From: Desulfatiglandales bacterium
Lineage (GTDB): Bacteria; Desulfobacterota; DSM-4660; Desulfatiglandales; B25-G16
DNA length: 64,000 bases
Reading direction: 5' to 3'
NCBI GenBank assembly: GCA_035527895.1
Contig: DATKZQ010000017.1
Span: 3,588 to 67,587 of the forward strand
Under the pieces are notes generated by a model. The model was not told the DNA's origin. It did not search any database and saw nothing but the letters and a program-made list of their open reading frames with translations. This document shows, piece by piece, positions 7,004 through 27,948 of the stretch (the first letter of the stretch is position 1; every line of letters starts with the position of its first letter). The translations under genes were made by a program, and so were the position numbers.

Positions 7004-7032
7004 AGCTTGATGAGATAACGTGCTGCGAGATA

Positions 7033-10065: not shown

Positions 10066-10098
10066 CCTTTCTCCTGTTCAGGGCAGCAAAGTACGCGT

Positions 10099-10127: not shown

Positions 10128-10173
10128 AACGAATTTTGGGCTCTCCCATGCACTTTTCAAGGGACCCGCAAGA

Positions 10174-11435: not shown

Positions 11436-11591
11436 GCTGCACTCCTTGGGCGCGACAAATGCTCTTTTGTGCATCTGATGTTCCAATGGGCCGGAGTCAG
11501 ACTCCATCCCGAGGATAGGCGGAGCATGAGTGACGCATCGAGGGGGAATGGAGAACCCCGCAAAGTTATAATCTTATGTCCCCGATTTACC
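11436..11591 (-). repeat. Duplicated promoter-region module, copy B
   Basis: It aligns with 7033..7186 and lies ~230 nt upstream of dctP. Confidence 0.8.
11470..11485 (-). promoter_or_regulatory. Sigma-54 (-24/-12) promoter candidate for the dctPQM operon
   Basis: The minus strand reads TGGAACATCAGATGCA, with GG and GC at consensus spacing. It is homologous to the copy A element. Confidence 0.5.
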
Positions 11592-11743
11592 GAAACCTTG
11601 AATAAAAGGTTAGCTCAAAGTGTCAAAACCAACTTCACCATCCGGCGAGCTTGGGCCGTCCGCTTGAACCGCTTAGCCTGCGGTTCACGTGCGAAAACCT
11701 TGGCGTCGAGCAGCTTGAGTATGTACCCAAATGCCGTCATCAC

Positions 11744-12258
<515 letters not shown>

Positions 12259-13240: not shown

Positions 13241-13583
13241 GTGTACGCCCGGCATGGGCGTGAACCTTTCGGCCCTGAGCCTCTCGGCCATGAGCTCGAG
13301 GCCGAATAGCTTTTTGGGTGTAAGTCCCCTGTATGTGAGCTCTGTTAGTGTAAATATACACTGACACAAATACGAGCCGAATACAAGTCGAAGATCCCGA
13401 GCTGGTCGGGAGAGCGGAACCGCGAGGGACCATCTGAAGCTTGCCTGCCTCACGCAGGGAAGGGAAGTCAGGGTGCAAAGTTACTGCGGGAGGTGACGCA
13501 GGTTTTAAAGCAACTTATGAACACAACTCTTTTGCTGTTTAAGCTTTTTGGCAAGTTGTTTCAGAACAAAAGTCCCGTTTTAC
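13241..13583 (+). repeat. Structured ~350-bp repeat, full copy 2
   Basis: It starts at GTGTACGCCC like copy 1 and carries a ~15-nt internal deletion relative to copy 1. Confidence 0.7.
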
Positions 13584-13720
13584 CGTCCCTCTCACCGACC
13601 GTTAAATTATTTTGGTCAGCGTTAAAATCCCTTGACTCAAGGGTTGACGATGGGAATATTGTAAGTTGAGGTGCAATGATACAGAAGACCAGTACTTAAC
13701 AATTGAAGAGGAGGGTGGAG

Positions 13721-14155
13721 ATGTTTGAGAAAATACTTTATCCAACGGACTTTTCAGATGTGTCGAAAAAGGCCTTGGGATTCATCAAGCAGCTGAAGGG
13801 GGCTGGGACAAAAGAGGTTCTAGTATTGCACGTTATTGATGACAGGGAAACTGAACGACTGAGGCATATTCCGCAAATAAATGCTGAGGAGATAGAGAAG
13901 ATACACGAAGAAAATGTCCACAAAGAAATCAAGGCTATAGCCGACGAGTTGAAGAAGAGTGGTTTGGAGGTTAAGACACGGATCGATAGAGGCATTCCCT
14001 TCAGGGAGATCTTAAAGGTTGAGAAAGAGGAGGGCATCTCCGCCGTAGTTATCGGATCTCACGGCAAGACCTGCATTAGCGAAATGCTCCTTGGCTCTTG
14101 TTCAGAAAAGGTGATTAGAAAATCCACCAAGCCGGTTCTGGTTGTAAGGAGATAG
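13721..14155 (+). CDS. Universal stress protein (UspA family)
   Basis: MFEKILYPTDFSDVSKKAL...VIGSHGKT...LGSCSEKVIRKSTKPVLVV, with a GAGGAGGGTGGAG RBS. Confidence 0.85.
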   Translation: MFEKILYPTDFSDVSKKALGFIKQLKGAGTKEVLVLHVIDDRETERLRHIPQINAEEIEKIHEENVHKEIKAIADELKKSGLEVKTRIDRGIPFREILKVEKEEGISAVVIGSHGKTCISEMLLGSCSEKVIRKSTKPVLVVRR

Positions 14156-14647: not shown

Positions 14648-16000
14648 GGTAGTGTAAAATATATTGTGTAAATTCTGAGAGGGTAGAAAAAAGGGCGCTT
14701 TTCCTTTAAAAGGGTTTTAAGCAATAACCTATAAAGAAAGGAGAAGCACCCATGAAAGTAGAAATTAGCGTACCAGAAATAGTAGCAATTTTCAAGGAAA
14801 TTCAAGAGCAACCTGAGAGAATTTTCGAGATGATCCGGGTAGAGATCAGAGAGAACGTTGGTGAATATCTGTCCAAGTTGATGGATATGGAGCGTACCCA
14901 ATTTCTTGAGCGGGAATGGTATGAACATGGTCAGGGAGAGGTGAATCATCGCAATGGTTCCTATCCTCGTAACTTCACATTAAAAGGTATTGGAGAGGTA
15001 AAGGTTGAGGTGCCAAGGGATCGGAAGGGTGAGTTTACAACCCAGGTCATTCCCCGAAGTAAACGGTATGAGAATGAGCTTCGGCAAGATTTGAGTGTTA
15101 TGTTTTTAACCGGTGTGAGCACACGGACCCTATCGATGATTTCTACAAGACTGATAGGCTCTAAGATATCTCCAACGGAGATAAGTAACGCCAATAAAGA
15201 GTTGATAGATGCGGTGGAGAAATGGAGGACCCGTGATCTATCCGGGGAAACGATCAAATACATATTTTTGGACGGTGTTAACTTTGATATGCGCATAGAT
15301 GGGAGCATAGAGAAGGTGCCCGTGCTGGTGGCTATTGGAGTTACAGAAACAGGGCAAAAACTGGTGTTAGGTTTCCAGGCAGGGGATAAGGAATCCGCTC
15401 CCACCTGGCGGGAGTTTTTCAAGGATCTGAAGGGAAGAGGTTTGGATGGCAGCACCATGGTCTTGGGTGTGATGGATGGATTGCCGGGACTTGAGAAGGT
15501 GTTTAAGGAAGAATTCCCAAAAGCCAAAGTCCAGAGATGCCAGGTCCATGTGGCAAGAAATGTCCTGGCCAAGGTTCCTAAGAAGTTGAAAAAGGCTGTG
15601 GCCGATGATATGCGGTCCATTTTCTATGCCTCTTCAAAATCGAAAGCTATGGAGTTCTTTGACATTTTCAAAGACAGATGGCAGCGAGATCTTCCCTCTG
15701 CCGTTAAATGCCTGGAGAACTCTTTAGAAGCGTGTCTCACATTTTTTATCTGTCCAGAGGAAGAGTGGATCTCTTTAAGGACCACGAACATTATCGAACG
15801 TCTCAACAAGGAATTTAAACGCAGAACAAAGCCTATGGAGATTGTAGCTGGGGAGAATGCCTGCTATACCCTCCTGGCTTTTATCTGCTTAAAGATGGAA
15901 TTACATTGGAAGTCAAACCCTATAGGAAAAGTGCGTAAGAACCTTCCCTTCCTCAAAGAATTGGAAGATAAAAAATTCACACAAAAAATTTGACAGTACC
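14648..16000 (+). mobile_element. IS256-family insertion sequence (1353 bp)
   Basis: The terminal inverted repeats GGTAGTGTAAAATATATTGTGTAAATT and GGTACTGTCAAATTTTTTGTGTGAATT (reverse complement of the right end) match at 22/27 positions. They bracket a single transposase gene. Confidence 0.85.
14752..15993 (+). CDS. IS256 family (Mutator-type) transposase
   Basis: A 413-aa protein containing GSYPRNFTLKGIGEVKVEVPRDRKGEF, IFLDGV, VQRCQVHVARNV and TTNIIERLNKEFKRRTK. Confidence 0.9.
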   Translation: MKVEISVPEIVAIFKEIQEQPERIFEMIRVEIRENVGEYLSKLMDMERTQFLEREWYEHGQGEVNHRNGSYPRNFTLKGIGEVKVEVPRDRKGEFTTQVIPRSKRYENELRQDLSVMFLTGVSTRTLSMISTRLIGSKISPTEISNANKELIDAVEKWRTRDLSGETIKYIFLDGVNFDMRIDGSIEKVPVLVAIGVTETGQKLVLGFQAGDKESAPTWREFFKDLKGRGLDGSTMVLGVMDGLPGLEKVFKEEFPKAKVQRCQVHVARNVLAKVPKKLKKAVADDMRSIFYASSKSKAMEFFDIFKDRWQRDLPSAVKCLENSLEACLTFFICPEEEWISLRTTNIIERLNKEFKRRTKPMEIVAGENACYTLLAFICLKMELHWKSNPIGKVRKNLPFLKELEDKKFTQKI

Positions 16001-16669
16001 CACAAACTGATACACTGGCTCATTGCTTGCGGCCTTGTCTTGCCATTTCGCTTCAAGAATATAGTGCTCCCCATCGTATTTTACGGCACCGTCGATCTGC
16101 TCGCCGTTTACCCGAAAGGCATCGGTGACTTCCAAACCGGACAGCTTCGCGAGGTTAGCAAGAATGGATTCAAGCGAATATCCACGTCTTTGAGGTGCGG
16201 TCTTCCCGGCGTGCAAGTCGAGGAACTCTTTTAACAGCTCCCCAGTTGAGATGTCGGGTTGACGCAGCACAACCTCAGCAGCATTTCTTTTCTCACGCTC
16301 GGCCTTGATCTTCCCGTCTCTTATCTCCTGCAGCTGTCTCAAGTGGTCAAGGCAGGTCTGTGCCTTTCCCCGGTCCAGCTTTCGGAGCTTGTCAAAGTAA
16401 TACGGGTCAAAATGCGACCAATTCAGCAAAGACTGAAGCATGGCCCGAAATTGGCCCAACCCGCCTGTAGCCTTTGAGGATAGATGAACGAACATGAGGT
16501 CCACCATCCTGGACCGGCTGAGGTTTTCCTCCTTGAACTGAACTATGACCTTGAGGTCGTCTTTGGTGCAGTCATGGTCTGCAAAGAAGTCATAGATGAC
16601 TTGCTTTGGCCACATTACTGCCAAAATGCAGTCCTTCATGCATCCCTTGATGTCAGCTGGAAACTTCAT
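16001..16669 (-). pseudogene. Cassette 5: PD-(D/E)xK (Mrr-type) nuclease-domain protein, 3' end replaced by the IS256 insertion
   Basis: ...RGYSLESILANLAKLSGLEVTDAFRVNGEQIDGAVKYDGEHYILEAKWQDK... carries a D...E-x-K motif. The last 7 codons (GTVKFFV*) are IS sequence. Confidence 0.6.
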
Positions 16670-16693
16670 CTGATCTCAACCATTTTTCTTGCC

Positions 16694-16754
16694 TGCCAAC
16701 GCCGCTCTTCAGCGGGCGCGGCTTTTTGCGATCCGCTGAAAAAGCATGTTAGCA
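16694..16754 (-). other. attC site of cassette 4
   Basis: The minus strand reads TGCTAAC-(imperfect palindrome CTTTTTCAGCGG..CCGCTGAAGAG)-GTTGGCA. It starts 5 nt after the ORF stop. Confidence 0.65.
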
Positions 16755-16758
16755 GATT

Positions 16759-17376
16759 CTATGTTTTTCCCTTTGCCAGTTTAGTACGCAATTTTTCATG
16801 TTGGCATTTAAGATCCTCATATAATGGATATAAGGACTGCTCTGAATGATCTAAGGCTCTAATTATCTCTCCTGGCAAGGACCCTGCGAGAAACCGATCC
16901 CATATATTTACGAACTCAATTAACGCTGGATAATGCTTTGCTGTGGAGGGTTCGGCAAGATGAATATTTTTTCTAAATATTTCTATCATCTTATGATATG
17001 CGGGGATCGTTTCAGTTTCGAGATATTCGTTATCGTAATCAATGATTTTATCAAACTTTTCACCCTTTTGTTGAGTTAGCTTTTGGAGTTCTGTGGGATT
17101 ACCTTCATACCTCTCACACATCTCATGCCAGACTTTTCCAGCGGTACTACCTATTTTTACACGTACTTTTCCAATTGTTTCGATTTCTTTTCTCAAAGAA
17201 AGAAGTGGGGAATAAAAATCAGTGAGCTGTTCGGATAGGAATTTATGACGACGCCCGATTTTCTCTCTTCTGGAAGTCAGTAAGGCACCGACAGCAACAC
17301 CGCAAAGCCCCGCAATGGCAGGGACTGTAATGGAGATGCCCCACTGCAATAAACTCACGGAATTAGGTTCAGCCAT
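16759..17376 (-). CDS. Cassette 4: hypothetical protein with an N-terminal TM anchor
   Basis: A 205-aa protein with one hydrophobic segment (ISITVPAIAGLCGVAVGALL) and a helical rest. No family was recognised. Confidence 0.5.
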   Translation of the reverse strand: MAEPNSVSLLQWGISITVPAIAGLCGVAVGALLTSRREKIGRRHKFLSEQLTDFYSPLLSLRKEIETIGKVRVKIGSTAGKVWHEMCERYEGNPTELQKLTQQKGEKFDKIIDYDNEYLETETIPAYHKMIEIFRKNIHLAEPSTAKHYPALIEFVNIWDRFLAGSLPGEIIRALDHSEQSLYPLYEDLKCQHEKLRTKLAKGKT

Positions 17377-17395
17377 AGGGCTTTTCTCCCGCTTA

Positions 17396-17455
17396 TGCTA
17401 ACGTTGCTAATCAGCCGCGCGGCTTTTTGCGTCGGCTGCATTAGCCTTGTTAGGC
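17396..17455 (-). other. attC site of cassette 3
   Basis: The minus strand reads GCCTAAC-(GCTAATGCAGCCG..CGGCTGATTAGC, with one unpaired G)-GTTAGCA. The central part is similar to the cassette 4 attC. Confidence 0.7.
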
Positions 17456-17496
17456 GATTCAAATTAAAAGGGCATCTAAGATTTCAATCCTCTAAT

Positions 17497-18645
17497 CTAA
17501 TCAAATACCCAATTAACAAGTCTATCCTTATTTACTGTGAATACACCGCCTTCATAATATAGTGTCTTTGCATAATTTCTGATAAGTTCTTGTTGTTTCA
17601 GGGTAAGATTTAACCACCATTTTTCTGCAAAGTAAGTGTTCTCACAATTTACAAAACAGTACTGAACAAAGATATCACCTTTCTCTTCATTTGGTAATTT
17701 ATCGAAACTATCTACCACATTACTTGGGTCTTGTTCGTCTTTTAACCATACAAAAATAATTGCTCCTCCATCTTCTGTATTCATAACCGAATGCGAAAGC
17801 ATTTCTGCATCCATATTTAGATCCCACATATCGAGAAGCTTATTTCCAGCAAAATCGAATTCACATTGAAAAACGCTTGAACTTACAACATCTATATCTC
17901 CTTGAAAGAAAAAACATTTGCTTTCAAATGTATCAATTTTTCTTTGAATAATGGCCGATTCGAATTTTTCCCTCAAACTATCGTTTTCTTCCAAAGATTT
18001 TTTTTGGCCCTCGATACTTTTAGTTATAGAAAGCTGCACATTTATTTGGCGATCAAGATCAAAACCTCTATCAATGACGGTGCGTTGAAATTCTAGAGAT
18101 TCGATAAGCGCCTGTTTTCTATATAATTCATTACAGACATTTCGAAACGCATGTAAAACACAATGCCAATGTTCTCCTGAAAATTCTCCTTTTTCTATTG
18201 GGGCGAACAAGCTAGTGTCGTGTCCTGAACAATAACCTGGAAAAATTGAAGCCTTCCTCCAACCAATCCTTGATGCCTTTACTTCGCCATTATTTGGATC
18301 GGGCTCAAAATTCATTAAATGGCCAGTATCATCTATTAGTTGTTTTAAGGGTCCTTTCCGCTGAATTGTGTGTGAATCTATTACCTTTCCGCTACAAGAG
18401 CTTGTTGAAGCTAATGGATGCATGCAGCCACGCTTACGCCAAAAAACTTTTCGTTGGAGATTTTGAAGTTGACCTAGCGTATAGGGTTTTTCTTGTTCCC
18501 TTAATCTATGGCATTTTTTATATTTTCTTCCAGAACCACACCAACAAGGTTCGTAATGCTTTCTATCTCTAAGAGCATTTGCGACGAATGGATGATTATC
18601 TTCAACTTCTCTTACTTTAAATGGATGTGGTGGTAGTTTTATCAT
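17497..18645 (-). CDS. Cassette 3: SEC-C motif-containing protein of unknown function
   Basis: An N-terminal CWCGSGRKYKKCH (SEC-C metal-binding motif) is followed by CSGKVIDSHTIQ and GYCSGHDTSLF. The gene is visibly AT-rich. Confidence 0.6.
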   Translation of the reverse strand: MIKLPPHPFKVREVEDNHPFVANALRDRKHYEPCWCGSGRKYKKCHRLREQEKPYTLGQLQNLQRKVFWRKRGCMHPLASTSSCSGKVIDSHTIQRKGPLKQLIDDTGHLMNFEPDPNNGEVKASRIGWRKASIFPGYCSGHDTSLFAPIEKGEFSGEHWHCVLHAFRNVCNELYRKQALIESLEFQRTVIDRGFDLDRQINVQLSITKSIEGQKKSLEENDSLREKFESAIIQRKIDTFESKCFFFQGDIDVVSSSVFQCEFDFAGNKLLDMWDLNMDAEMLSHSVMNTEDGGAIIFVWLKDEQDPSNVVDSFDKLPNEEKGDIFVQYCFVNCENTYFAEKWWLNLTLKQQELIRNYAKTLYYEGGVFTVNKDRLVNWVFD

Positions 18646-18721
18646 TCTTCCTAAATTTAGAGTGCTATTTTTTCCTACGTTATCGGCTCAAGGAACCCCT
18701 ATATAGCAATCTAATCATTAC

Positions 18722-18792
18722 GCCTAACGTAATTTTCACCTGCTGGTGTGAAGCGAAGCGAAACACCAGTCTGGTGGAAAAACTGGTTGGGC
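18722..18792 (-). other. attC site of cassette 2
   Basis: The minus strand reads GCCCAAC-(TTTTCCACCAGACTGGTGT..ACACCAGCAGGTGAAAA, with unpaired bases)-GTTAGGC. Confidence 0.7.
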
Positions 18793-18834
18793 GTCATTGC
18801 CCCATAGTACGTTGTTCTCTGCAGAGCTGTAACA

Positions 18835-19575
18835 CTATAGATCTACAATCCCATTACGAAAGATGTATTCGCGCCCCTCATCGGTAAGCTGCACAATCGC
18901 ATGGCTTCGAAAGACAAGCCCCTGGTCGCTAGCTTCGGCAAAATATCTTTCGAAAGACAACCTGTGAAGACTGGAGTTTTTGACTGCTGTGTCAAAGAAT
19001 ATCGTACCTTTTCGAGATTGATTGGCTGTAGCAGCAATTGCCTCCATAACTGATCGAATACCATCACTGGTGCGGTCTGGTCGAGAACTCTGCATAGGCG
19101 CGAACGGCGCCGTGCCAATCGGTGGCTTCTCGTAGAGAGGCGCGTTCAGTAGGGTCCTAAGAAGATCGTCAAAACTGTATTCAATCTCATCGTCATTTGA
19201 GAAGTTTATGTAGAGCTTCGATTGCATAAAAGTTGGGAGCTTATTAGCTCCCTTTTGTCGAATTATGGGAATTACCTTATTGTTGTTGATCCTTGATAGC
19301 AGTGAGGAAGTCATTATCATCTTTTCGTATCCTACACCGCCTGCTCCGGCGTTCGCTTTTTCAACATACACTTCGGTACATATCATTAGCACGAAGTCAC
19401 AAGAAGATAGTTGTGTCTCCATAAAGTGTGGTAGGTCATCACCAGGGCGCAAATCCCACTGATCCAATACTGCATCAACACCTCGGTTACGAAGGGTTGT
19501 CGCGAAATCAAGAACCCATGCTTTGTGCTCCGCAGAATCGTGGGAGTATGAAATGAAAACGACTGGTGGATTCAT
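18835..19575 (-). CDS. Cassette 2: TIR-like domain protein with a C-terminal putative winged-helix domain
   Basis: VVFISYSHDSAEHKAWVLDFATTLRNRGVDAVLDQWDLRPGDDLPHFME...FVLMICTEVYVEKANAGAGGVGYE is a TIR/SEFIR-like pattern. Confidence 0.7.
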   Translation of the reverse strand: MNPPVVFISYSHDSAEHKAWVLDFATTLRNRGVDAVLDQWDLRPGDDLPHFMETQLSSCDFVLMICTEVYVEKANAGAGGVGYEKMIMTSSLLSRINNNKVIPIIRQKGANKLPTFMQSKLYINFSNDDEIEYSFDDLLRTLLNAPLYEKPPIGTAPFAPMQSSRPDRTSDGIRSVMEAIAATANQSRKGTIFFDTAVKNSSLHRLSFERYFAEASDQGLVFRSHAIVQLTDEGREYIFRNGIVDL

Positions 19576-19621
19576 ATCGAAGCTCCTAAGCTATTTCTTG
19601 TGGAAATCACTGTAATATGTC

Positions 19622-19677
19622 GCCCAACATGAAGTTCATCGGGAGCGTAAGCGATCCGGTGAAACGATTTGTTGGGC
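19622..19677 (-). other. attC site of cassette 1
   Basis: GCCCAAC...GTTGGGC flanks an imperfect palindrome, 30 nt after the ORF stop. Confidence 0.6.
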
Positions 19678-19706
19678 GGTCCTTTGCCCATTTTCTTTAC
19701 TCAGTA

Positions 19707-20330
19707 TCAGGGCTGTCCCCCTTCATTTCTGTTTTGCCAGTGAATCGGAATGTTAGGGTGCTCACCCACGAAATCCGGGTTTATGATGCAAATAGAGTCC
19801 GGCGATTGGGTCCGGTCTTTCAAGGTCGTTGGCACTCGCATATAGGCAATCGCATTCTCCAACCGGAGTTCTCGCTCTCTGACAGCAACCCGATTTGGAA
19901 GATCAAGCATCCAGCCATACTGGCTATACAGCATGCCCTCTATGTGAATGGTACTCTGGTCTTGAAAAGCAATTCTTACTACATGGTTCCGGGCCTCTTG
20001 GTTTACGCATGTAGATTTAAGTCGCGGAAGCACATCACTGCGTCCGAGCGAAAACCTCATTGCTAAGGCCTCTCCGTGCCATGGCAGGCCAAGTGCAAAA
20101 GTCCGAATTGCATCAATTATGGTCTGCGAAAATATTTGTTTAATAATTGAATATCCCACGCCCTGATTTTTCAGAAGATAGGCCAGAGCGCCAATTGATA
20201 TTTTTGCCAAGCCTCTGCAATATGTTTCCTGCTCGTGGGGTCTTAACCCGACCGGAAATGCGATTGCATATACACTTTCGGGAGGTATTTGTCTATTTGT
20301 CTCTGTCGTAGATATATCGAAAAGCTGCAT
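19707..20330 (-). CDS. Cassette 1, ORF B: hypothetical protein (partner or frameshifted C-terminal part of the HNH protein)
   Basis: A 207-aa ORF that overlaps ORF A by 38 nt in another frame. There is no attC between the two ORFs. Confidence 0.45.
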   Translation of the reverse strand: MQLFDISTTETNRQIPPESVYAIAFPVGLRPHEQETYCRGLAKISIGALAYLLKNQGVGYSIIKQIFSQTIIDAIRTFALGLPWHGEALAMRFSLGRSDVLPRLKSTCVNQEARNHVVRIAFQDQSTIHIEGMLYSQYGWMLDLPNRVAVRERELRLENAIAYMRVPTTLKDRTQSPDSICIINPDFVGEHPNIPIHWQNRNEGGQP

Positions 20331-20616
20331 CTACCCGTGGTTCTAAGCCTTCAAAATAGGAAAATTGAAACGGTCTAAGAGCACCATCAGCCAATAGGGC
20401 TTCTCCCGATCGTTTCAATGCTCTGGTGTTCTCGAACCTTACCAAGTACAGCATATCCCTCACTTCATTATCGAAGACTGAATTCGATCGGGTATTACTC
20501 GCCTCGCATACCGGCAGCCATTGATTTTCAGGGCCGTCAATAGACCTAGGTATGAAATGCTCTTGCGTCAACGAATCGTCATGATCTTCATTGCAAAGGA
20601 AACAGTAATAGCTCAT
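20293..20616 (-). CDS. Cassette 1, ORF A: HNH endonuclease-domain protein
   Basis: MSYYCFLCNEDHDDSLTQEHFIPRSIDGPENQWLPVCEASNTRSNS fits the pattern CxxC...EH...C..N. ATG 20616 lies 13 nt after the GTTGGGC junction. Confidence 0.6.
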   Translation of the reverse strand: MSYYCFLCNEDHDDSLTQEHFIPRSIDGPENQWLPVCEASNTRSNSVFDNEVRDMLYLVRFENTRALKRSGEALLADGALRPFQFSYFEGLEPRVDAAFRYIYDRDK

Positions 20617-20628
20617 TTGTTTCTGTTC

Positions 20629-20700
20629 GCCCAACCATTGATTCTTAGGCGAATTTGCCTGGTATTGGGCTATTGGGGCATAAGACAGGCAAATTTGCCT
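20629..20700. other. Candidate attI region
   Basis: GTTGGGC on the minus strand (20635-20629) lies at the start of cassette 1. Two copies of the palindrome AGGC(G/A)AATTTGCCT (20647-20660, 20687-20700) lie between it and intI. Confidence 0.45.
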
Positions 20701-20761
20701 GTTGACAATATTCAATATTTTGCCTCCCATCTGGCGGAGCTCTACAGAAACGGAGGGAGCC

Positions 20762-20980
20762 ATGGCACGCAGACTCCTCGATGAAATGCACGAGATGATG
20801 AGGCGTCGCCACTATTCGATACGTACCGAGCAGAGCTACTGTGCGTGGGTAAAGCGCTATGTGCACTTTCATAAGATGCGGAGCAGGGCGGGCCTTCGGA
20901 ACGGCGAACAAAAGATCGAAGCGTTCCTCACTCATCTTGCCATAGACCTCCGTTTGACTCCTGGAAAATGTTGTCTCTAG
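20762..20980 (+). pseudogene. intI: Integron integrase remnant (N-terminal ~65-70 residues only)
   Basis: MARRLLDEMHEMMRRRHYSIRTEQSYCAWVKRYVHFHKMRSRAGLRNGEQKIEAFLTHLAI matches the IntI N-terminal SAM-like domain (HYSxRTEQxY..W...F..FH, EAFLxHLA). The frame then ends. A GGAGGGAG RBS is present. Confidence 0.7.
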
Positions 20981-21338
20981 TTTTTGAAAGGCCTAACTAA
21001 TTACCGATGGATCAGCGGTGGTTCAGAGTGGGCAATCAGCTGAGCAGGAGAGCGTAAGTGGTGCTTTGAGCTCTGCGTGAGCAAGAGAAGTAGAATCGCG
21101 GTTTCACTTGAAAAGTGGCGCCACTAGATCAGATTAGCTAAGAATGATGTCTCTTTTACCATATCTTATCAGTATCGGCAAGAGGGAATGGGCTTGTATG
21201 AATAACGACCTCAAGTTTTAGTAGGATCTGCCGATAGAAGAAATTGGAATAACGGGGATATCGGATTCCAAAGGCAACTAACTGCGATAGTTGTGCGTAG
21301 TTGTCAAACTCAGAGAACAATAGCTCGGGGAGCTTGAA

Positions 21339-21557
21339 TTGGGAGTATATGAGGAAATGATGGGGACTGATAAAGAAGTAATGAATGCCGACGAGGTTTC
21401 CAGTTGGCTTCGTATCCCCAAATCAACCCTCTATAAGCTGTGTTGCGAGGGCCAAATCCCCTGTGCCAAGATCGGGAAACACTGGAGGTTTGACAGGGCA
21501 ATGGTCAAATCATGGTTTCAAAAGAGAGTTCGAGAAACAATAGCACAGAATTACTGA
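21339..21557 (+). CDS. Excisionase-family helix-turn-helix DNA-binding protein
   Basis: ADEVSSWLRIPKSTLYKLCCEGQIPCAKIGKHWRFDRAMVKSWF is an HTH_17/excisionase pattern. Confidence 0.65.
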   Translation: MGVYEEMMGTDKEVMNADEVSSWLRIPKSTLYKLCCEGQIPCAKIGKHWRFDRAMVKSWFQKRVRETIAQNY

Positions 21558-21649
21558 AATAAGCGGATGGGAACGGTTTCATGAACACAGGACACGTGAG
21601 GATTTCCGTGTAACTATTTGAAAACTTAACCGCAGGAGAACAACGATCA

Positions 21650-22135
21650 ATGGAAAGATCTCTGAAGGTAATACTTGAACCCACATGGGATGAAATAGAA
21701 AAGGCCAGGAACAGAAGCAGCGATTTCCTGAATGCCCATGGGTTATCAAATGATGCTGTGCACGCGCTTACGATGGTGGTGAGTGAACTGATCGAGAACA
21801 GTGTCAAATATGGCAAGTTCGCAGCACCGGAAAGTAAGGTAGTCGTAACGATCGATATTGAAGAAAGCATGATCTCTGTTGAAGTAGTCAACCCCGTCGA
21901 TGAAACAGCATACAAGCATTTGAAGAACCTGGATAAGACAATTCAATGGATCAGGGGACATCAAGACCCCTTTGAGGCCTATATAGAAAGACTGAGGGAG
22001 GTCTCTAGAAGACCACTGGATGATAAGGAAAGCGGCCTGGGCCTTGTCAGAATATCATATGAGGGAAGAGCTATCCTCGATTTTTTTCTTGGTGAAAATG
22101 ACCTGTTAAGCGTGTCGGCTGTTTCACCCTATTAG
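21650..22135 (+). CDS. GHKL-type anti-sigma-factor-like Ser/Thr kinase (SiaB/RsbW-like)
   Basis: N-box VVSELIENSVKYG and G-box DDKESGLGLVRI in a 161-aa protein. Confidence 0.7.
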   Translation: MERSLKVILEPTWDEIEKARNRSSDFLNAHGLSNDAVHALTMVVSELIENSVKYGKFAAPESKVVVTIDIEESMISVEVVNPVDETAYKHLKNLDKTIQWIRGHQDPFEAYIERLREVSRRPLDDKESGLGLVRISYEGRAILDFFLGENDLLSVSAVSPY

Positions 22136-22148
22136 AAAGGCTAAAGAG

Positions 22149-22526
22149 ATGACTGTGCGAGAGAAAGAGACATTTGTTAGCAATCTGCTGAAATTAGAAC
22201 TCGAGGAAAAGAAAGACTCTATCAATATCAGCTGGTCTGGAAAGAGCATAGATCGTGAGCCAGGGAAATTTATCACCCCAATTCTCGTCAACGCTATCAG
22301 GAGAAGCAGCGGGCTTAATAAAAAGATCATATTGGACTTTCGGGAGCTGGCTTATATGAATTCATCATCTATCACACCAGTCATAAAGATCCTTGAAAGG
22401 GCCAAAAGAGGGAGAACTCAAATCAGGGTTGTCTATAGAAAATCTCTGAAATGGCAAGATCTCTCCTTTTCTGCCTTAGAGATATTTAAAACCAAAGACC
22501 GCAGAGTGGAAATCAAGGGATTGTAA
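22149..22526 (+). CDS. SiaC-like (DUF1987-type) partner-switch phosphoprotein
   Basis: ISWSGKSIDREPGKFITPILVNAI...ILDFRELAYMNSSSITPVIKILERA follows the SiaC pattern (GDSYPEN..F..VIDW...L.L.L.YLNTSSIK..DIL) in a 125-aa protein. Confidence 0.6.
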   Translation: MTVREKETFVSNLLKLELEEKKDSINISWSGKSIDREPGKFITPILVNAIRRSSGLNKKIILDFRELAYMNSSSITPVIKILERAKRGRTQIRVVYRKSLKWQDLSFSALEIFKTKDRRVEIKGL

Positions 22527-22532
22527 TACAGC

Positions 22533-23927
22533 ATGCACCAAGATGCCATAAACCTAACGGCTGATCTGATCACAGGAAAAGAGAAGATACCCGTCGATGT
22601 CACCTACGCATCCAGATATTCTCTGCTGGTCCGTTACCCGGATTCACGGGCTTACGGGGATGGAGCACGTTTCTCCAAGCTCGTGATCCATCTCACCGGA
22701 GAAGATTGTGAGCTGGGTCCGTGCAGGGTCATGTCAGAACCCAACATCGATGGCTATGCAGGCAGGCTCGTTTTCCTTGAGGATGTTTATGACCTCGAAA
22801 ACCTGTTTCTTAACAACAGGATAGTCAAGCTGCAAAACGCTTTTGTTAACCTGCCGTTGGTCCTGGCTTACAAAGAGAGGATCTGCAAGGCATTTAAGGA
22901 GTATACCGCCAATCTCACGTATGATTTGAGCGTCTATAAGGGTCTCTTTGATAGCCTGGATCTGGAATTGAGTGCCGAGCCTGAGAGCACAAGAGAATCG
23001 GTCAGGAGAGCCATCATCGATACCGAGGGCAAGAAGTTCATGCGGTTCCTTGATGAGAGGCTGAAGGAACTAGGGGGCATAGTCGGTTCGTTCAACAGGG
23101 AAGAGCATGCGCAGCACGGGTTTTATTTCAGAAAACAACTGTGGAACTATATCCTCTGTTCTCCACTTCTGAAACGAACCAATCTGAAGCCAAGAGGATA
23201 CGCTGGAGATTCGGTGATGATGCAAATGATTTATGCAAACGAGCTTCAGGGTGATTCCACCTTTTCGAAGCTCATGCATAAGCATCCATTGGATCACTCT
23301 GCCGCTCGGGCTGTACGAAGCAGAAGACATGTTATAGCGAACATGGCCCGCCGTATCAGGGAATATGATACCGGTATAACGGACGGAAGATTGAAGGTCT
23401 TGTCTGTTGCCAGCGGGTCTGCAATTGAAATCGACGACATACTGGTTACTGCCGGGGATTGTGAAAAATATCATTTTGCCCTGCTCGATCAAGACCGACA
23501 GGCCCTGATCGAAGCGGCGGAGTGTATTAACCGGATTGAGAAGAAGTTAGAAGCCAAAATCAAGGTAGACTACATAAACGAATCCGTACGAACCATGCTT
23601 GCGTCGCCACAATTGAAGGGCAGGTGGGGGGAATTCGATTTCATTTATTCGATGGGGCTTTTTGATTATCTCACTCCTCGGGTGGCGTCGGCCGTGCTCC
23701 GTAAGCTTTTCCAATTGCTGAAGCCCGGTGGGGAGATGATCGCCGGAAATTTCCATACATCAAATCCGAGCAAATACTATATGGAGTATTGGGCAGACTG
23801 GGTTCTCTACCATCGAACGGAACAAGAGTTCGGAGATCTGTTAGGCAATGCTGCCTCAGCGGAAATCGATATCTTTTTCGATGATACAGAGAGTCAAATG
23901 TTTCTTCACATAAGAAAGACAGGATAG
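22533..23927 (+). CDS. Fusion protein: N-terminal domain of unknown function plus a class I SAM-dependent methyltransferase (PhcB-like architecture)
   Basis: The SAM motifs VLSVASGSAIE, LLDQD, FDFIYSMGLFDYL and LLKPGGEMIAGNF lie in the C-terminal half of a 464-aa protein. The gene starts 7 nt after the SiaC-like gene. Confidence 0.65.
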   Translation: MHQDAINLTADLITGKEKIPVDVTYASRYSLLVRYPDSRAYGDGARFSKLVIHLTGEDCELGPCRVMSEPNIDGYAGRLVFLEDVYDLENLFLNNRIVKLQNAFVNLPLVLAYKERICKAFKEYTANLTYDLSVYKGLFDSLDLELSAEPESTRESVRRAIIDTEGKKFMRFLDERLKELGGIVGSFNREEHAQHGFYFRKQLWNYILCSPLLKRTNLKPRGYAGDSVMMQMIYANELQGDSTFSKLMHKHPLDHSAARAVRSRRHVIANMARRIREYDTGITDGRLKVLSVASGSAIEIDDILVTAGDCEKYHFALLDQDRQALIEAAECINRIEKKLEAKIKVDYINESVRTMLASPQLKGRWGEFDFIYSMGLFDYLTPRVASAVLRKLFQLLKPGGEMIAGNFHTSNPSKYYMEYWADWVLYHRTEQEFGDLLGNAASAEIDIFFDDTESQMFLHIRKTG

Positions 23928-24138
23928 CGATGACATGCGCTGTGCATACTGACCCCTTTTTTCTTAACTGGAGGGTGTTTTTGTCCGTCTTTGGCCGGTG
24001 AGTCATGAAACGTTCTTTGAATCGACACGTTTGACACCTATGGAGGCCTTTCACGGAGGGACAATAAATGCGGTTTCCGATGTTTATCACCTTATCTGAG
24101 TTATAGAAGGATGGCTAACGTTTAAACCCGGGATTGAG

Positions 24139-25509
24139 ATGAGCCTCATTGCTAACACGACAGAGCAGTTCGATTATGATGCCGATCAATTCGAAAGCTA
24201 CCTCAGCAGCATCATCCATGAGTGGCTGAAAACTCTCACTATTCTGGCATTCCTAATGGTTCCGGCATTCCTGATACTGGATTATTTCATAATGCCTAAG
24301 GAGCTTCTCCAGCGATTTGTTATTTACAGATCCATTTCTACACTCATCGTGATCATCCAATATGCCATTGTTCGTCAAACCAGAGCAAGCAGGCTCTCTT
24401 ACATCCACGGGTATGTTGTTTCAGTGAATATTGGAGGAATGATAGCGCTGATGACAGTTGATCTGGGAGGGTTTAATTCCAGTTATTACGCGGGCCTGAA
24501 TCTCGTTATTATTGGGGTAAATCTCTGGATACCATGGAAGACCCTCCACTCAGCCCTCAATAGCATCATAGTTATTTCCTTGTATATCTTATTGAATGTC
24601 ATTGCAGGTCATCCATATGCTCATTCGCCCCTCATCAATAACCTCTTTTTTCTGTTCTCAACAGCAATCATTGCCGTGAGCATAAACCATGTGAAACACA
24701 AACTTGTCAAACAGGAGTTTTACCTGCTTGTTGAGTTGAAAAAGGCCCGGGATGCGCTCTGGAGTGAGATGGAACTGGCAAAACGGATACAAACAGCACT
24801 TTTGCCGGACAGGGAAAAGGTTAAGGGCTTTGAAATTGCCGCTACCATGGTCCCGGCCAAAGAGGTAGGTGGCGATTATTACGATATCATCGAAACCCCA
24901 ACGGGGGATAAATGGGTTACCATTGGTGACGTGTCGGGCCATGGGGTTGATTCAGGGCTGATTATGATGATGGCACAAACAAGTATTCTTTCGACGGTAC
25001 ATAGTTCAACGGACTGTAGGCCATCAGCGGTTCTCCAATCGGTAAACTCGATTCTGAGAGAGAATATTTCGAGGTTGGGATCCGACCACTACATGACCAT
25101 GATGGCCATCCGGTTCAATGAATCACAAATGACCCTGGCCGGAAAACACCAAGATATCATAATTCATAGATCTGCATTGAATAAAACCGAAACCATCCCT
25201 ACAAAAGGAACGTGGCTGGGAATCGATGAAGATATCGGGAAATACTTGGATGATGTTTCGGTGACCATAGAGGAAGGCGATCTCATACTGCTATTCACCG
25301 ATGGCATCACCGAGGCTACAAACAGGAATGGGGAGATGTATGGACAGGTTCGCCTCGAACAGGCCCTGAATGAATACGCAGATTTGCCCGTCCGTAAGAT
25401 CCTCGACAAGGTAATCGAAGACGTAACGGTCTTTCAGGAAGAACAACTGGATGATATGACCTTGGTAGTAATCAAGAAAGGCGATCCGAGTTCAACCTAC
25501 TGGCATTAG
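24139..25509 (+). CDS. Membrane-anchored PP2C/SpoIIE-family Ser/Thr phosphatase (SiaA-like)
   Basis: A ~190-aa multi-TM N-terminus is followed by EVGGDYYDI, GDVSGHGVDSGLIMMMAQT, FTDGITEA and DDMTLVVIK. Confidence 0.8.
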   Translation: MSLIANTTEQFDYDADQFESYLSSIIHEWLKTLTILAFLMVPAFLILDYFIMPKELLQRFVIYRSISTLIVIIQYAIVRQTRASRLSYIHGYVVSVNIGGMIALMTVDLGGFNSSYYAGLNLVIIGVNLWIPWKTLHSALNSIIVISLYILLNVIAGHPYAHSPLINNLFFLFSTAIIAVSINHVKHKLVKQEFYLLVELKKARDALWSEMELAKRIQTALLPDREKVKGFEIAATMVPAKEVGGDYYDIIETPTGDKWVTIGDVSGHGVDSGLIMMMAQTSILSTVHSSTDCRPSAVLQSVNSILRENISRLGSDHYMTMMAIRFNESQMTLAGKHQDIIIHRSALNKTETIPTKGTWLGIDEDIGKYLDDVSVTIEEGDLILLFTDGITEATNRNGEMYGQVRLEQALNEYADLPVRKILDKVIEDVTVFQEEQLDDMTLVVIKKGDPSSTYWH

Positions 25510-25538
25510 GCATTTCTAACCATTTAAAGCAGGTAGAC

Positions 25539-27842
25539 ATGACGGTTGTTTCCTTTTCAGCAAATGAAATAAAGGCAAACCTGCTGACGCTGTCCTTTCC
25601 CAAAGAACTTGAGCAGGCCTTTCTTGATGACTATTTTGAAAAATCGTTACGACATGTGCGCATAGCCTTGCTTTTGGGTTTCTTTTTTTACGGGATTTTC
25701 GGAATTCTCGACGCATGGCTCGTTCCAGACGTGAAGGAGACACTATGGCTTATTCGCTATGCCATTTTTTTTCCTTTTCTGCTTGGGGTATTCCTGTTCT
25801 CCTACTCCATTCATTTCAAGAAATTCATGCAGCTATCGATTGCAGGTGTAATCTTGGTAGCTGGACTGGGCATCATCGCGATGATCCTGATTGCTCCGGA
25901 TCCGGGGAGTTATCTGTATTACGCGGGCTTGATTCTGATCTTTCTTTTTGGATACACCTTTTTCAAACTCCGATTCATCTGGGCAACCGTCACAGGCTGG
26001 ACGCTCGTGATTGCCTACGAAATCTCAGCTATATGGTTGACTCAGACCCCCATTCCCATTCTGATTAACAACAACTTCTTCTTCCTTGCAGGCAATGTAA
26101 TCGGGATGTTTGCCTGTTACTCCATCGAGTTCTATTCACGTAAGGACTTCATCCAGGCCCGTCAACTGCAAGCGGAGAAGAAAAAGGTCACTGACGCCAA
26201 CCGAGAACTGGAGGAAAGAGTTGAGGAACGGACCGCACAACTCACGAGAACAAATGAGGAACTCAGGCAAGAGATAGAAGAACGCAGACGGGCACAGGAA
26301 GCACTGCACGAGAGCCAGAAACGTTACCGCGACCTCTTCGAGCAGTCCAGGGATCCAATCTTTATTAATTCGCGAGAGGGCAAACTTATTGACGTTAACC
26401 AGTCCTTTCTGGATCTGCTTGGCTATACCAAATCAGAGATAGGAAATCTCAAATCTCAAGAGACATATGCTAACCCGGATGACCGGTCCAGATTTCAGCA
26501 CGAGATAGAACAAAAGGGATCTGCCACGGACTTTGAGTTGAAATTAAGGAAGAAGGATGGCACAGAGATAGATTGCCTGCTCACTGCGACTGTGCGGAAG
26601 GCTGAAGATGGGGCAATTCTGGGATACCAGGGAATCATACGTGACATCACTGAGCACAAGCGCGCGGAAGAGGAAAGAAAGAAGCTTGAAGTCCAGCTGG
26701 CGCGAGCCCAAAGGATGGAGGCTATGGGTACGCTAGCTGGGGGTGTGGCACACGATTTCAACAATATCCTTGCAGCTATCGTCGGCTATGTGGAGCTTTC
26801 AATGCTGGATGTCGTCGAAGACACCAAAGTGAAGCACAATCTGGAAGAAGTGCTAAGGGCCGGCAAGCGGGCGAAAGACCTGGTGAACCAGATTCTTGCC
26901 TTCAGCCGGCAAAGCCGAAATGAGCTGAAACCCGTGGAGATTACCCCGGTTGTGAAAGAGGCCTTAAAGCTCTTGAGGGCCTCTTTACCTACCACTATTG
27001 AGATCCGCCACCACGTGGAGCCTGATACCGGGACTATAGAGGCGGATCCTACCCAGATCCATCAGGTTCTCATGAACCTTTGCACCAATGCGGCCCATGC
27101 CATGAGTGAGGAAGGCGGGCTGTTGGAGGTGAGTGTCACAAAGGTTGCTATAGATGCCTCTGCTGCACCGCTGAATTTAGATATAGATTCGGGACCGTAT
27201 CTGAAGATGTCCGTACGTGATACCGGTCATGGGATGACTTCTAAGGTATTGGAAAGGATCTTCGATCCCTATTTTACCACCAAGGAGAAGGGCAAGGGAA
27301 CCGGACTGGGATTGGCGGTGGTACACGGCATTGTGAAGAGCCACAAGGGCGGCATTGGTGTGGAGAGTGAGCCCGGGAGTGGAACATGCTTTCATGTATA
27401 CTTTCCGAGGATAGAGCAAAAGAAAGAGCTGACCGACACCGAGACTGTCCAACCCTTTCCCACAGGGCACGAGTGTGTGCTTTTCGTAGACGATGAGCAG
27501 GATCTGGTGCAGATAGCGGCGCAGATGTTATCTCATCTCGGGTATGAGGTCACAACAAGAATGAGCAGCAACGAGGCCTTGGAGTTGTTCCGCGTAAACC
27601 CAGAGCGGTTCGATCTGGTTATTACCGACATGACCATGCCGAATATGACGGGAGATACGCTGTCCAAAGAACTCATGAAGATTCGCCGCGACATCCCAAT
27701 TATACTGTGCACCGGATTCAGTGAACGTATCAGTGAGGAGAAGGCAAAGGCTATAGGGATTAAGGAATTCGTCATGAAACCCCTTGCGATGGGCGATCTT
27801 GCCAAGCGAGTACGAAAGGTGCTGGACAACGAGCGCTTTTAA
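25539..27842 (+). CDS. Hybrid sensor histidine kinase (multi-TM sensor, coiled coil, PAS, HisKA, HATPase, receiver)
   Basis: H-box GGVAHDFNNIL, N-box LMNLCTNAAHAM, G-boxes VRDTGHGM and GTGLGLAVV, and a receiver domain (VLFVDDE...LVITDMTMPNMTG). Confidence 0.9.
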   Translation: MTVVSFSANEIKANLLTLSFPKELEQAFLDDYFEKSLRHVRIALLLGFFFYGIFGILDAWLVPDVKETLWLIRYAIFFPFLLGVFLFSYSIHFKKFMQLSIAGVILVAGLGIIAMILIAPDPGSYLYYAGLILIFLFGYTFFKLRFIWATVTGWTLVIAYEISAIWLTQTPIPILINNNFFFLAGNVIGMFACYSIEFYSRKDFIQARQLQAEKKKVTDANRELEERVEERTAQLTRTNEELRQEIEERRRAQEALHESQKRYRDLFEQSRDPIFINSREGKLIDVNQSFLDLLGYTKSEIGNLKSQETYANPDDRSRFQHEIEQKGSATDFELKLRKKDGTEIDCLLTATVRKAEDGAILGYQGIIRDITEHKRAEEERKKLEVQLARAQRMEAMGTLAGGVAHDFNNILAAIVGYVELSMLDVVEDTKVKHNLEEVLRAGKRAKDLVNQILAFSRQSRNELKPVEITPVVKEALKLLRASLPTTIEIRHHVEPDTGTIEADPTQIHQVLMNLCTNAAHAMSEEGGLLEVSVTKVAIDASAAPLNLDIDSGPYLKMSVRDTGHGMTSKVLERIFDPYFTTKEKGKGTGLGLAVVHGIVKSHKGGIGVESEPGSGTCFHVYFPRIEQKKELTDTETVQPFPTGHECVLFVDDEQDLVQIAAQMLSHLGYEVTTRMSSNEALELFRVNPERFDLVITDMTMPNMTGDTLSKELMKIRRDIPIILCTGFSERISEEKAKAIGIKEFVMKPLAMGDLAKRVRKVLDNERF

Positions 27843-27948
27843 GCCCAGCTGCATTTTGTCAGTCATCCCCATAGCTCAAACGCGGTTTCTCTTACCTCCA
27901 TTTTGCCGTTTACCCGTACCTTTCCTGCTGCCGCGGCCTGTGAAGTAC

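Follow-up and report, generated by a model that had tools for sequence, protein, structure and literature searches.

A candidate partner switch for a PhcB-superfamily methyltransferase in a Desulfatiglandales bacterium

Partner switches are best known as controls of sigma factors and, more recently, of diguanylate cyclases (SiaD, HsbD and BgrR). What would such a switch act upon when its genes stand around a methyltransferase gene? The question is raised by a five-gene cassette found in 64,000 nucleotides of DNA from a Desulfatiglandales bacterium (contig DATKZQ010000017.1, forward-strand positions 3,588 to 67,587), a stretch referred to below as the window. All coordinates are window positions, and the five open reading frames (ORFs) of the cassette lie on the + strand. 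They encode a GHKL kinase, a STAS-like phosphoprotein, an S-adenosylmethionine (SAM)-dependent methyltransferase of the PhcB superfamily, a membrane phosphatase and a hybrid histidine kinase. The answer put forward here, at a probability of about 0.4, is that the switch gates the methyltransferase post-translationally, through a topology in which the kinase holds the enzyme, as in the Rsb and SpoIIA systems. Partner switches with a non-sigma, enzymatic output have been described in SiaABCD, HsbA-HsbD and BgrV-BgrR (cited in PMC8457831).

The first gene, K161 (21650..22135), codes for a GHKL Ser/Thr protein kinase of the anti-sigma-factor (SpoIIAB/RsbW/SiaB) type, 161 amino acids long. It is followed by S125 (22149..22526), a single-domain STAS/SiaC-like phosphoprotein of the anti-sigma-antagonist type (125 residues), MT464 (22533..23927), the PhcB-superfamily class I SAM-dependent methyltransferase (464 residues), PP2C456 (24139..25509), a membrane-anchored PPM/SpoIIE-type Ser/Thr phosphatase (456 residues), and HHK767 (25539..27842), a hybrid histidine kinase of 767 residues with MASE8-like, PAS, HisKA, HATPase_c and receiver domains. 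MT464 starts 7 nucleotides (nt) past the last base of the S125 stop codon, leaving a gap of 6 nt. An earlier reading of the sequence without database searches, hereafter the original prediction, had listed the same five genes; the sizes and the spacing that it gave are confirmed. Homologue searches return hundreds to thousands of relatives for each of them; they are therefore real genes and not chance ORFs. In the closest available genome (L001, CP070657.1), positions 6478-13170 match window 21011-27843 at 91.5% nucleotide identity. The synteny covers only the five genes and a non-coding leader of ~640 nt (21011..21649, no strand assigned), the presumed promoter or regulatory region, which is co-inherited with the cassette. 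As the synteny breaks at either end, the leader and the five genes (21011-27843) behave as one unit, and since the left and right flanks are unrelated, the cassette resides in different genomic contexts in close relatives.

Do these genes form a genuine partner switch? K161 scores above the gathering threshold of Pfam HATPase_c_2 (33.5 bits, threshold 27.4), and Pfam DUF6272 matches are found in kinase homologues. Compared with the PDB, a profile of K161 orthologues finds the RsbW-like domain of Rv1364c and SpoIIAB. The AlphaFold2 (AF2) model, with a predicted local distance difference test score (pLDDT) of 85, retrieves SpoIIAB, UsfX and RsbW with Foldseek at E-values of 2e-5 to 1e-4, SpoIIAB at 2e-5, and its best global superposition is on SiaB (6kko_B, TM-score 0.75/0.72, root-mean-square deviation 2.8 Å). 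The N-box and G-box motifs quoted in the original prediction are present, ELIENSVKY at residue 46 and SGLGL at residue 128. In 54/54 orthologues accompanied by a STAS partner, E46, N50, K53, Y54, S128, G129, G131 and R134 are invariant, and hence both the N box (E46, N50) and the G2 box (SGLGL). The possibility that K161 is a pseudokinase was ruled out on this invariance of its catalytic residues, which in 54 STAS-partnered loci points to a selected, presumably active kinase despite the missing G1 box. Within residues 78-85, N81 (N/H/S/D among homologues) aligns with the adenine-binding Asp of SpoIIAB, and the adenine pocket of K161 may be non-canonical.

S125 falls below the cutoffs of Pfam SiaC (PF09345, DUF1987; 20.8 bits, cutoff 24.5) and Pfam STAS (17.9 bits, cutoff 22.6). 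Among its orthologues, 10/12 match Pfam SiaC (E<=0.01, best 1.4e-5) and 9/12 match ant_ant_sig, and some homologues carry precomputed PF09345 matches; by these scores, the S125 family straddles the Pfam SiaC threshold. Searched as a profile, 12 orthologues taken from other genomes retrieve the STAS protein TM1442 first, over nearly its full length (E 3.8e-6), and SiaC (6kko_C, 6k4f, 7e6g) second, as a partial match (E 0.019). The sole invariant internal motif, a triad N71-S72-S73 (22359..22367, +), is kept in 12/12 orthologues and paralogues. It aligns with N67-T68-S69 of SiaC (LLYLNTSSI; 6kko_C, 6k4f_U, 7e6g), and S72 (22362-22364, +), the predicted phosphoserine, falls on the phospho-Ser of TM1442 and SpoIIAA. 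In SiaC, the N-T-S triad, located at the start of helix alpha2, is both the site phosphorylated by SiaB and a surface docking on the SiaD stalk (PMC8457831, PMC7647112). Membership of the 125-residue protein in SiaC/DUF1987 is not supported at the curated threshold. The parallel that had been drawn with the SiaC phosphosite holds: the YMNSS motif found at residue 69, YMNSS(S/T) in the alignment, stands opposite LLYLNTSSI (PMC7647112).

PP2C456 possesses a catalytic domain (residues 257-446, 24907..25476, +) recognized by Pfam SpoIIE at 123.7 bits. Its motifs GGDYYD244, DVSGHG264, TDGITE387 and DDMT438 make up the complete PPM metal-binding set and are kept in 47-53 of 53 orthologues. Taken together, K161, S125 and PP2C456 are, as judged from their sequences, a genuine partner-switch set drawn from the STAS/SiaC and RsbW/SiaB superfamilies. 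By no curated cutoff, however, do the small switch proteins score as members of the Sia family. NCBIfam SiaB (NF038262) gives K161 20.4 bits for a cutoff of 85 and matches 3/11 orthologues; SiaA (NF038263) gives PP2C456 59 bits for a cutoff of 700, the PP2C domain alone being aligned. The likeness to SiaB and SiaA asserted in the original prediction does not extend to the family level. The small proteins score better with slr1658/slr1659 and canonical STAS. The top curated families of every kinase and STAS-like orthologue are indeed those of the cyanobacterial pair slr1658/slr1659: slr1658_superfam (NF047703) for K161 (47.7 bits) and 11/11 orthologues, slr1659_superfam (NF047705) for S125 (31.7 bits) and 12/12 orthologues, both cassette scores lying far under the 100-bit cutoffs. 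slr1658 has been linked to recovery from iron starvation, and the function and partners of slr1658/slr1659 are uncharacterised (PMC7555055).

Is the switch tied to the methyltransferase beyond this genome? A first scan, at one genome per species, gave 11 loci (L001-L011), to which 80 metagenomic loci with 45-89% identity to MT464 were then added; the latter are not phylogenetically independent, and the counts below therefore tell how common an arrangement is rather than how often it arose independently. The order kinase, STAS-like protein, methyltransferase, PP2C recurs in ~90 loci of several phyla, comprising Desulfobacterota, Nitrospirales (Nitrospirota), Myxococcota, Leptospirales (Turneriellaceae) and Bdellovibrionota. 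Among the metagenomic loci with informative flanks, the STAS-like gene directly precedes the methyltransferase gene in 56/74, the kinase gene is upstream in 51/61, and the PP2C gene is immediately downstream in 45/63. Thirty loci offer 1.2 kb or more of upstream and 3.2 kb or more of downstream sequence; among them, the kinase is the only universal partner (30/30), followed by PP2C (28/30) and the STAS-like gene (26/30). The hybrid kinase is present in most Desulfobacterota-type loci and not in those of Myxococcota or Leptospirales. The linkage of the switch genes to this methyltransferase family, on which the original prediction had staked itself beforehand, is thus conserved across phyla. 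Clustering of all ORFs from 93 loci yields no further recurrent neighbour, sigma factors included; a 17-locus cluster that resembled an extra gene proved to be an out-of-frame shadow ORF within the PP2C gene. No GGDEF gene recurs in the cassette or among its recurrent neighbours, nor does any response-regulator or LysR gene that could stand for PhcR, PhcQ or PhcA recur in the loci.

What kind of enzyme does the switch accompany? By sequence, MT464 gives only sub-threshold class I methyltransferase matches in Pfam. Its AF2 model, computed from a 68-sequence alignment (pLDDT 93), exhibits a clear β-barrel, helical region and Rossmann methyltransferase fold, in keeping with the fusion to a SAM methyltransferase announced by the original prediction. 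Whole-chain Foldseek searches return generic class I methyltransferases only (3ocj, UbiG, CmoA, SgvM and CFA synthase, at E ~1e-9 to 1e-10), and the N-terminal barrel matched nothing. The Rossmann-fold SAM-binding catalytic domain spans residues 287-462 (23391..23918, +), as delimited by the secondary structure of the model. It is preceded by a helical region (residues 88-278, 22794..23366, +; DSSP on the model) composed of a long hairpin (residues 119-184) and of a helical cap over the catalytic domain. The protein carries the motifs KPRGYAGD219, VLSVASGSA289, LLDQD317, GLFDY375, NFHTSNP406 and MEYWADW417, and E299, D319, D321, D378, G400 and R428 are invariant in the family alignment. An exhaustive search collected 4334 clusters at 50% identity. 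Many of the more than 1600 homologues of MT464 carry the JGI name [quoted passage not shown], the designation of the phcB orthology group.

The first part of MT464, presented in the original prediction as a ~200-residue domain of unknown function, is better described as a degenerate PilZ-type β-barrel (residues 7-81, 22551..22775, +) followed by the helical region. Around 40 of the top 150 MT464 clusters are full-length, window-type proteins; the rest align from about residue 115 on and have other N-termini. These are PilZ domains (Pfam, up to 82.7 bits), of which some relatives carry two. A hidden Markov model (HMM) of the window-family N-terminus aligns to the stretch called PilZ by Pfam in P0202 (25.2 bits), P0257 (24.1 bits) and P0189. 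The assignment of the barrel, which combines the model and this HMM, is transitive and profile-based, since the MT464 N-terminus has no direct Pfam PilZ match even at E<=1. In the motif stretch, the relatives read RPxRY...[ND]FS[KR][YF]G and the window family Y-A-S-[RK]-[YF]-S, without RxxxR; in MT464, YASRYS (22605-22622, +) stands in place of [DN]xSxxG. Among representatives of at least 430 residues, the canonical motif pair is found in 0/42 of the window type as compared to 56/65 of the others. With both binding motifs gone, the barrel of MT464 has in all likelihood lost the capacity to bind cyclic di-GMP (c-di-GMP). Like the PilZ domains of its sister methyltransferases, to which it is homologous, it sits just upstream of the catalytic module. 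PilZ control of a class I methyltransferase is precedented by MapZ, which acts on CheR1 in trans (bioRxiv 10.1101/814665); the MT464 barrel differs in being fused in cis, in having lost both motifs, and in its presumed ligand, a protein.

In Ralstonia quorum sensing, PhcB makes the signal, a methyl 3-hydroxy fatty acid (methyl 3-hydroxymyristate or methyl 3-hydroxypalmitate), and PhcS is the membrane sensor kinase. The resemblance to PhcB was evaluated with a proxy, and not with Ralstonia PhcB: a 468-residue methyltransferase of a Paraburkholderia graminis plasmid (NZ_CP024936.1, L012:5467-6870), defined by its phcBSRQ-like synteny (a sensor kinase and two response regulators follow) and by Arg22. 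A tblastn search of plasmids for PhcB had yielded only short methyltransferases of the Rhizobium type and this one Paraburkholderia phcBSRQ-like operon, and NCBIfam holds no Phc models. MT464 and the proxy are collinear over residues 179-457 at 29% identity (BLASTP E 3e-31; hhalign E 1.4e-38) and have in common KPxGYAGD, GLFDYL and NxHxxNP..ME. Residues 1-178 of MT464 do not align to the proxy, either by BLASTP or by profile comparison. The proposed likeness to PhcB therefore stands for the core and for the JGI orthology group, and fails for the N-terminal part. By analogy, MT464 is most likely the synthase of a small lipophilic methylated signal. In Ralstonia PhcB, an adaptive R22C mutation affects a conserved residue outside of the methyltransferase domain (PMC6989110). 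The proxy N-terminal region, which contains Arg22, the residue of R22C, has neither PilZ motif and no Pfam domain; the PhcB N-terminus may be a regulatory domain.

A different product is conceivable if MT464 is a protein methyltransferase, namely a CheR-like adaptation enzyme that modifies a signalling protein. Several relatives give weak, sub-threshold matches to the CheR SAM-binding domain, and CheR1 is the enzyme regulated by the PilZ protein MapZ (bioRxiv 10.1101/814665). We consider this highly improbable: these matches, all under the cutoff, span the generic SAM-binding part. Among the specific homologies, that to the PhcB-type core is the strongest, and it takes in the pre-Rossmann cap; by fold, methyltransferases of small molecules and lipids come nearest, and FadL/Toluene_X channels for hydrophobic compounds adjoin two relatives.

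These channels appear among six canonical PilZ-methyltransferase relatives whose surroundings were sampled: P0202 (L094), P0223 (L097), P0187 (L100), P0207 (L101), P0195 (L096) and P0177 (L099). The gene of P0202 is followed by that of a hybrid kinase with a MASE8 domain, and the gene of P0223 by that of a kinase whose MASE8 domain gives a full Pfam match; P0187 neighbours a MASE8-like protein, and P0195 is followed by a membrane class III cyclase. P0207 is flanked by a 7TM kinase and a FadL/Toluene_X channel, and P0177, on a short contig, by an upstream Toluene_X gene. No FadL/Toluene_X homologue occurs in the window or in window-type loci, in contrast to these two canonical relatives. Kinase, STAS-like and PP2C homologues are absent from L094-L096, which were searched directly, and, as far as the flanks are informative, from the gene tables of the other canonical loci. 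Two conclusions are drawn from these neighbourhoods. The conserved core of the whole superfamily, as read from gene content, pairs a PhcB-like methyltransferase with a MASE8-type membrane sensor, after the fashion of phcB-phcS; on the same reading, only the clade whose PilZ barrel is degenerate has the kinase and STAS-like pair in addition. Furthermore, the canonical-PilZ relatives suggest that PhcB-like signal synthases gated by c-di-GMP form a large family not yet described.

That a methyltransferase and a MASE8-type sensor can go without the switch genes, as they do in the canonical relatives and in the phcBS-type locus, brings in a second explanation. The methyltransferase would make a signal sensed by PP2C456 and HHK767, its activity would not be gated at the protein level, and the switch would target a product encoded elsewhere, a sigma factor or another enzyme; many partner switches do act on distant targets. 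This explanation is judged unlikely. The switch genes are confined to the clade that has lost the PilZ c-di-GMP motifs, which is the pattern to be expected if the switch replaces the c-di-GMP input on the enzyme. In addition, neither a sigma factor nor another recurrent gene is found in ~90 loci, and the cassette moves as a unit, a degenerate GHKL protein staying with the methyltransferase even in the variant described below.

The input side of the cassette is also PhcS-like. The multi-pass membrane domains of PP2C456 (residues 1-205, 24139..24753, +; by profile comparison) and of HHK767 (residues 1-215, 25539..26183, +; by BLASTP and profile comparison) are homologous, with 25% identity by BLASTP (E 6e-4) and a score of 96.5% in a profile-profile comparison (E 9e-10), and the motifs LD..P and YYAG are invariant in both types. 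The PP2C456-domain profile matches the membrane domain of a PhcS-type kinase over 165 columns (hhalign, 95.9%, E 5e-9). The MASE8 kinase next to P0223 links all three, as it is matched by the PP2C456-domain profile at 99.7% (E 2e-26), and its N-terminus matches the HHK767-domain profile at 97.9% (E 3e-13) and the PhcS-type sensor at 97.3% (E 2e-11). In the control comparisons, the best E-values are 0.06 for reversed sequences, 0.03 for shuffles, 8e-5 for block shuffles and 0.057 for unrelated membrane segments, and the 7TM kinase, used as a negative control against the MASE8-like profiles, gives E 0.21. Among orthologous membrane domains, 1/15 matches Pfam MASE8, at E 0.1. The name “MASE8-like” is used because the Pfam model does not recognize window-type domains, so that the assignment is transitive. 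The phcBSR-like sensor of the original prediction thus turns out to be more pronounced than claimed, the phosphatase and the hybrid kinase both carrying a PhcS-type membrane sensor domain. Beyond this domain, HHK767 has the Pfam order PAS-HisKA-HATPase_c-Response_reg and retains H405 (HDFNN), DTGHG561, GTGLG587 and the receiver D697.

Which switch protein would then contact the enzyme? The original prediction gave this role to the SiaC-like protein; the comparative data favour the GHKL protein and an Rsb/SpoIIA-like topology. The comparison turns on a group of 13 loci (variant B) in which a kinase homologue is encoded downstream of the methyltransferase and is followed by a hybrid kinase, without STAS-like or PP2C genes and with a non-coding spacer. 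The catalytic residues of the homologue have decayed: Ser stands in place of N50 in 9/13, and E46 survives in 6/13, G131 in 5/13 and S128 in 0/13. No G2 box is left, while conservation persists at D95, Q99, E78 and E138. Since it remains beside the methyltransferase after the loss of the STAS-like and PP2C genes, the GHKL protein is probably a direct partner of the enzyme with a binding role. That it persists with substrate and phosphatase gone and the catalytic residues decayed favours an Rsb/SpoIIA-like topology over a Sia-like one; this reading assumes that those genomes hold no STAS-like or PP2C genes elsewhere.

In the Sia-like arrangement, it is unphosphorylated S125 that would activate the methyltransferase through N71-S72-S73, for example on the long hairpin, K161 acting as the off switch and PP2C456 as the on switch. 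A good deal speaks for it. The triad aligns with the SiaC residues N67-T68-S69 that dock on the SiaD stalk helices (PMC8457831), MT464 offers a long helical hairpin at residues 119-184, SiaB is the best global structural match of K161, the S125-type gene is the immediate upstream neighbour of the methyltransferase gene in 56/74 loci, with the 6-nt gap in the window, and the authors of the SiaC work proposed that DUF1987 proteins modulate adjacent proteins. We nevertheless hold it to be rather less than likely. The STAS-like gene is the least constant part of the cassette (26/30) and variable in position, and it is missing from L008 and from all variant B loci; a kinase deprived of its STAS-like partner would have no role, yet variant B retains the decayed homologue; and recognition by the kinase and the phosphatase explains the triad equally well.

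L008, in which kinase, methyltransferase and PP2C are present and no STAS-like gene lies within 13 kb, suits yet another arrangement. K161 might phosphorylate the methyltransferase itself, for instance on the conserved Ser of YAS[RK][YF]S, PP2C456 would reverse this, and S125 would compete as a substrate or act as an antagonist; most of the family indeed keeps the Ser of what was once the DxSxxG motif. To our knowledge, anti-sigma-type GHKL kinases (SpoIIAB, RsbW, SiaB) phosphorylate only STAS-fold partners, and an essential role of the methyltransferase as kinase substrate is disfavoured because the catalytic residues of the variant B homologue decay with the methyltransferase still present. 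Direct phosphorylation therefore appears very unlikely.

The gating model in which the kinase holds the enzyme can be spelled out as follows; the interaction steps, the sign of the regulation and the product of MT464 are what we infer. K161 would bind MT464, probably at the degenerate PilZ barrel or at the helical hairpin, and fix it in one activity state, much as an anti-sigma factor holds a sigma factor. It would also phosphorylate S125 at Ser72. Upon sensing of a cue by the membrane domain of PP2C456, phosphorylated S125 would be dephosphorylated, and unphosphorylated S125 would capture K161, releasing MT464. By analogy with PhcB and PhcS, the most economical cue would be the membrane-soluble product of MT464 itself, resulting in feedback on signal synthesis, and HHK767, with the same type of sensor, would pass this cue on to gene expression. 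A canonical PilZ domain that binds c-di-GMP would gate the enzyme in most relatives; in the window clade, the partner switch would have replaced this input.

A wider version of this model is possible, if doubtful. PhcB/PhcS-like lipid-methyl-ester signalling would not be confined to Burkholderiales but widespread, its family counting thousands of protein clusters (Desulfobacterota, Myxococcota, Nitrospirota, Leptospirales and others), with the synthase itself regulated: by c-di-GMP through PilZ in most members, and in the window clade by a partner switch whose PP2C carries a PhcS-type sensor. The outcome would be an autoinduction loop at the protein level, with the GHKL kinase as an “anti-methyltransferase factor” docking on a repurposed PilZ domain.

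Several observations weigh against the gating model or parts of it. A motif check shows that K161 is devoid of the DxGxG G1 box. In variant B, the degenerate GHKL protein could be working for the hybrid kinase next to it instead of for the methyltransferase. Region-wise conservation of MT464, compared between loci with and without the STAS-like gene, does not single out a docking region, the relative identity of the barrel being 0.70 with the gene and 1.06 without it. The SiaC-like triad of S125, which in SiaC contacts the enzyme (PMC8457831), and the end of the S125 gene 6 nt before that of MT464 both fit the Sia-like topology. On the sensor side, the window domains give no direct match to Pfam MASE8 (PF20968) at E<=0.1. 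Finally, the PhcB comparison was made with a proxy and covers 60% of MT464 at 29% identity, for which reason no substrate is inferred for MT464.

How does the cassette compare with the known systems? With SiaABCD of Pseudomonas aeruginosa, it has in common a membrane PP2C, a small GHKL kinase and a STAS-like phosphoprotein of ~125 residues beside a non-sigma enzyme, as well as the aligned N-[ST]-S triad and the superposition of K161 on SiaB. The output differs, being a methyltransferase instead of the GGDEF cyclase SiaD with its SiaC-binding helical stalk, and so do the gene order, the scores, which miss the curated SiaA, SiaB and SiaC thresholds, and the output-proximal partner, for which the comparative data favour the kinase rather than the SiaC-like protein. 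The phosphatase sensor is MASE8-like and multi-pass in the cassette, whereas SiaA has two transmembrane helices and a HAMP domain (PMC7647112). The SpoIIAA/AB/SpoIIE and RsbV/W/U systems resemble the cassette by their GHKL anti-sigma-type kinase, their STAS antagonist with an aligned phospho-Ser and their PPM phosphatase input, and from them comes the topology proposed here, with an output held by the kinase and set free by the antagonist. Conversely, the cassette lacks a sigma factor in ~90 loci, its presumed target is an enzyme, its phosphosite reads N-S-S instead of D-S-x-G, and K161 departs from their kinases at the G1 box. Ralstonia phcBSRQ has a methyltransferase core collinear with that of MT464, as far as the proxy tells, and likewise a PhcS-type membrane sensor domain in the following gene. 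It differs in the unalignable 178 N-terminal residues and in the nature of the sensor proteins, the first one in the cassette being the PP2C and the hybrid kinase coming second. The cassette has no PhcR, PhcQ or PhcA equivalents, and the kinase and STAS-like genes are missing from phc loci.

Further observations concern the make-up of the loci. In variant C, a membrane class III nucleotidyl cyclase (Guanylate_cyc, 174 bits) is encoded between the methyltransferase and the PP2C. Six such loci (L071, L072, L077, L081, L085 and L089; e.g. L072:6612-7949) have a MASE8-like domain fused to the class III adenylate/guanylate cyclase, so that one type of sensor domain serves three outputs, PP2C, histidine kinase and cyclase, within one system. 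In Myxococcota, a second, divergent STAS-like gene follows the PP2C gene on the opposite strand (L004:5974-6342(-), L005:5858-6226(-), L009:10749-11129(-)), and in L009 it is the sole copy. L011 harbors extra STAS-like and kinase paralogues 3-5 kb downstream (12166-13993).

Within the window, a scan for promoters and terminators over the cassette finds nothing beyond expectation, no sigma-70 consensus promoter exceeding that of shuffled sequence, and an Rfam search over the same region returns no RNA family. The spacer between MT464 and PP2C456 contains a 141-nt insertion (23953-24093) that L001 lacks and that is unique within the window and L001-L011, without an Rfam match or notable repeat structure. 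Directly upstream of the cassette, positions 15977-20980 form a small island of mobile/defence type, with a GC content of 0.43-0.46 as compared to 0.50-0.54 elsewhere. It carries genes for an Mrr_cat-like protein (15977-16669, -), a SEC-C-motif protein (17497-18645, -), a TIR_2/SEFIR protein (18835-19575, -) and an HNH_5-like protein (20293-20763, -), and a truncated ORF resembling the SAM-like N-terminal domain of phage integrases (20702-20980, +).

In the literature searched, which left out most subscription journals so that a prior description is possible, no partner switch coupled to a methyltransferase was found described; within the same limits, neither were PilZ-methyltransferase fusions nor phc systems beyond Burkholderiales. 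A preprint surveying PilZ proteins mentions only MapZ, acting on CheR in trans (bioRxiv 10.1101/814665).

If the gating model is true, small-molecule signal synthesis would be added to the outputs of partner switches, and Ser/Thr phosphorylation, c-di-GMP/PilZ and phc-type quorum sensing would be linked in one evolutionary series. The family offers natural contrasts for its study: a canonical PilZ domain with a MASE8 kinase; a degenerate PilZ domain with kinase, STAS-like protein and MASE8-PP2C; and a degenerate PilZ domain with a pseudokinase. The shared sensor suggests a class of ligand for the uncharacterised MASE8 domain, and the cassette hints that the N-terminal region of PhcB bearing R22C is a regulatory barrel. 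As for the organisms themselves, sediment sulfate reducers, myxobacteria and leptospires, in which no system of this kind is known, may use lipid signals between cells or in an autocrine manner.

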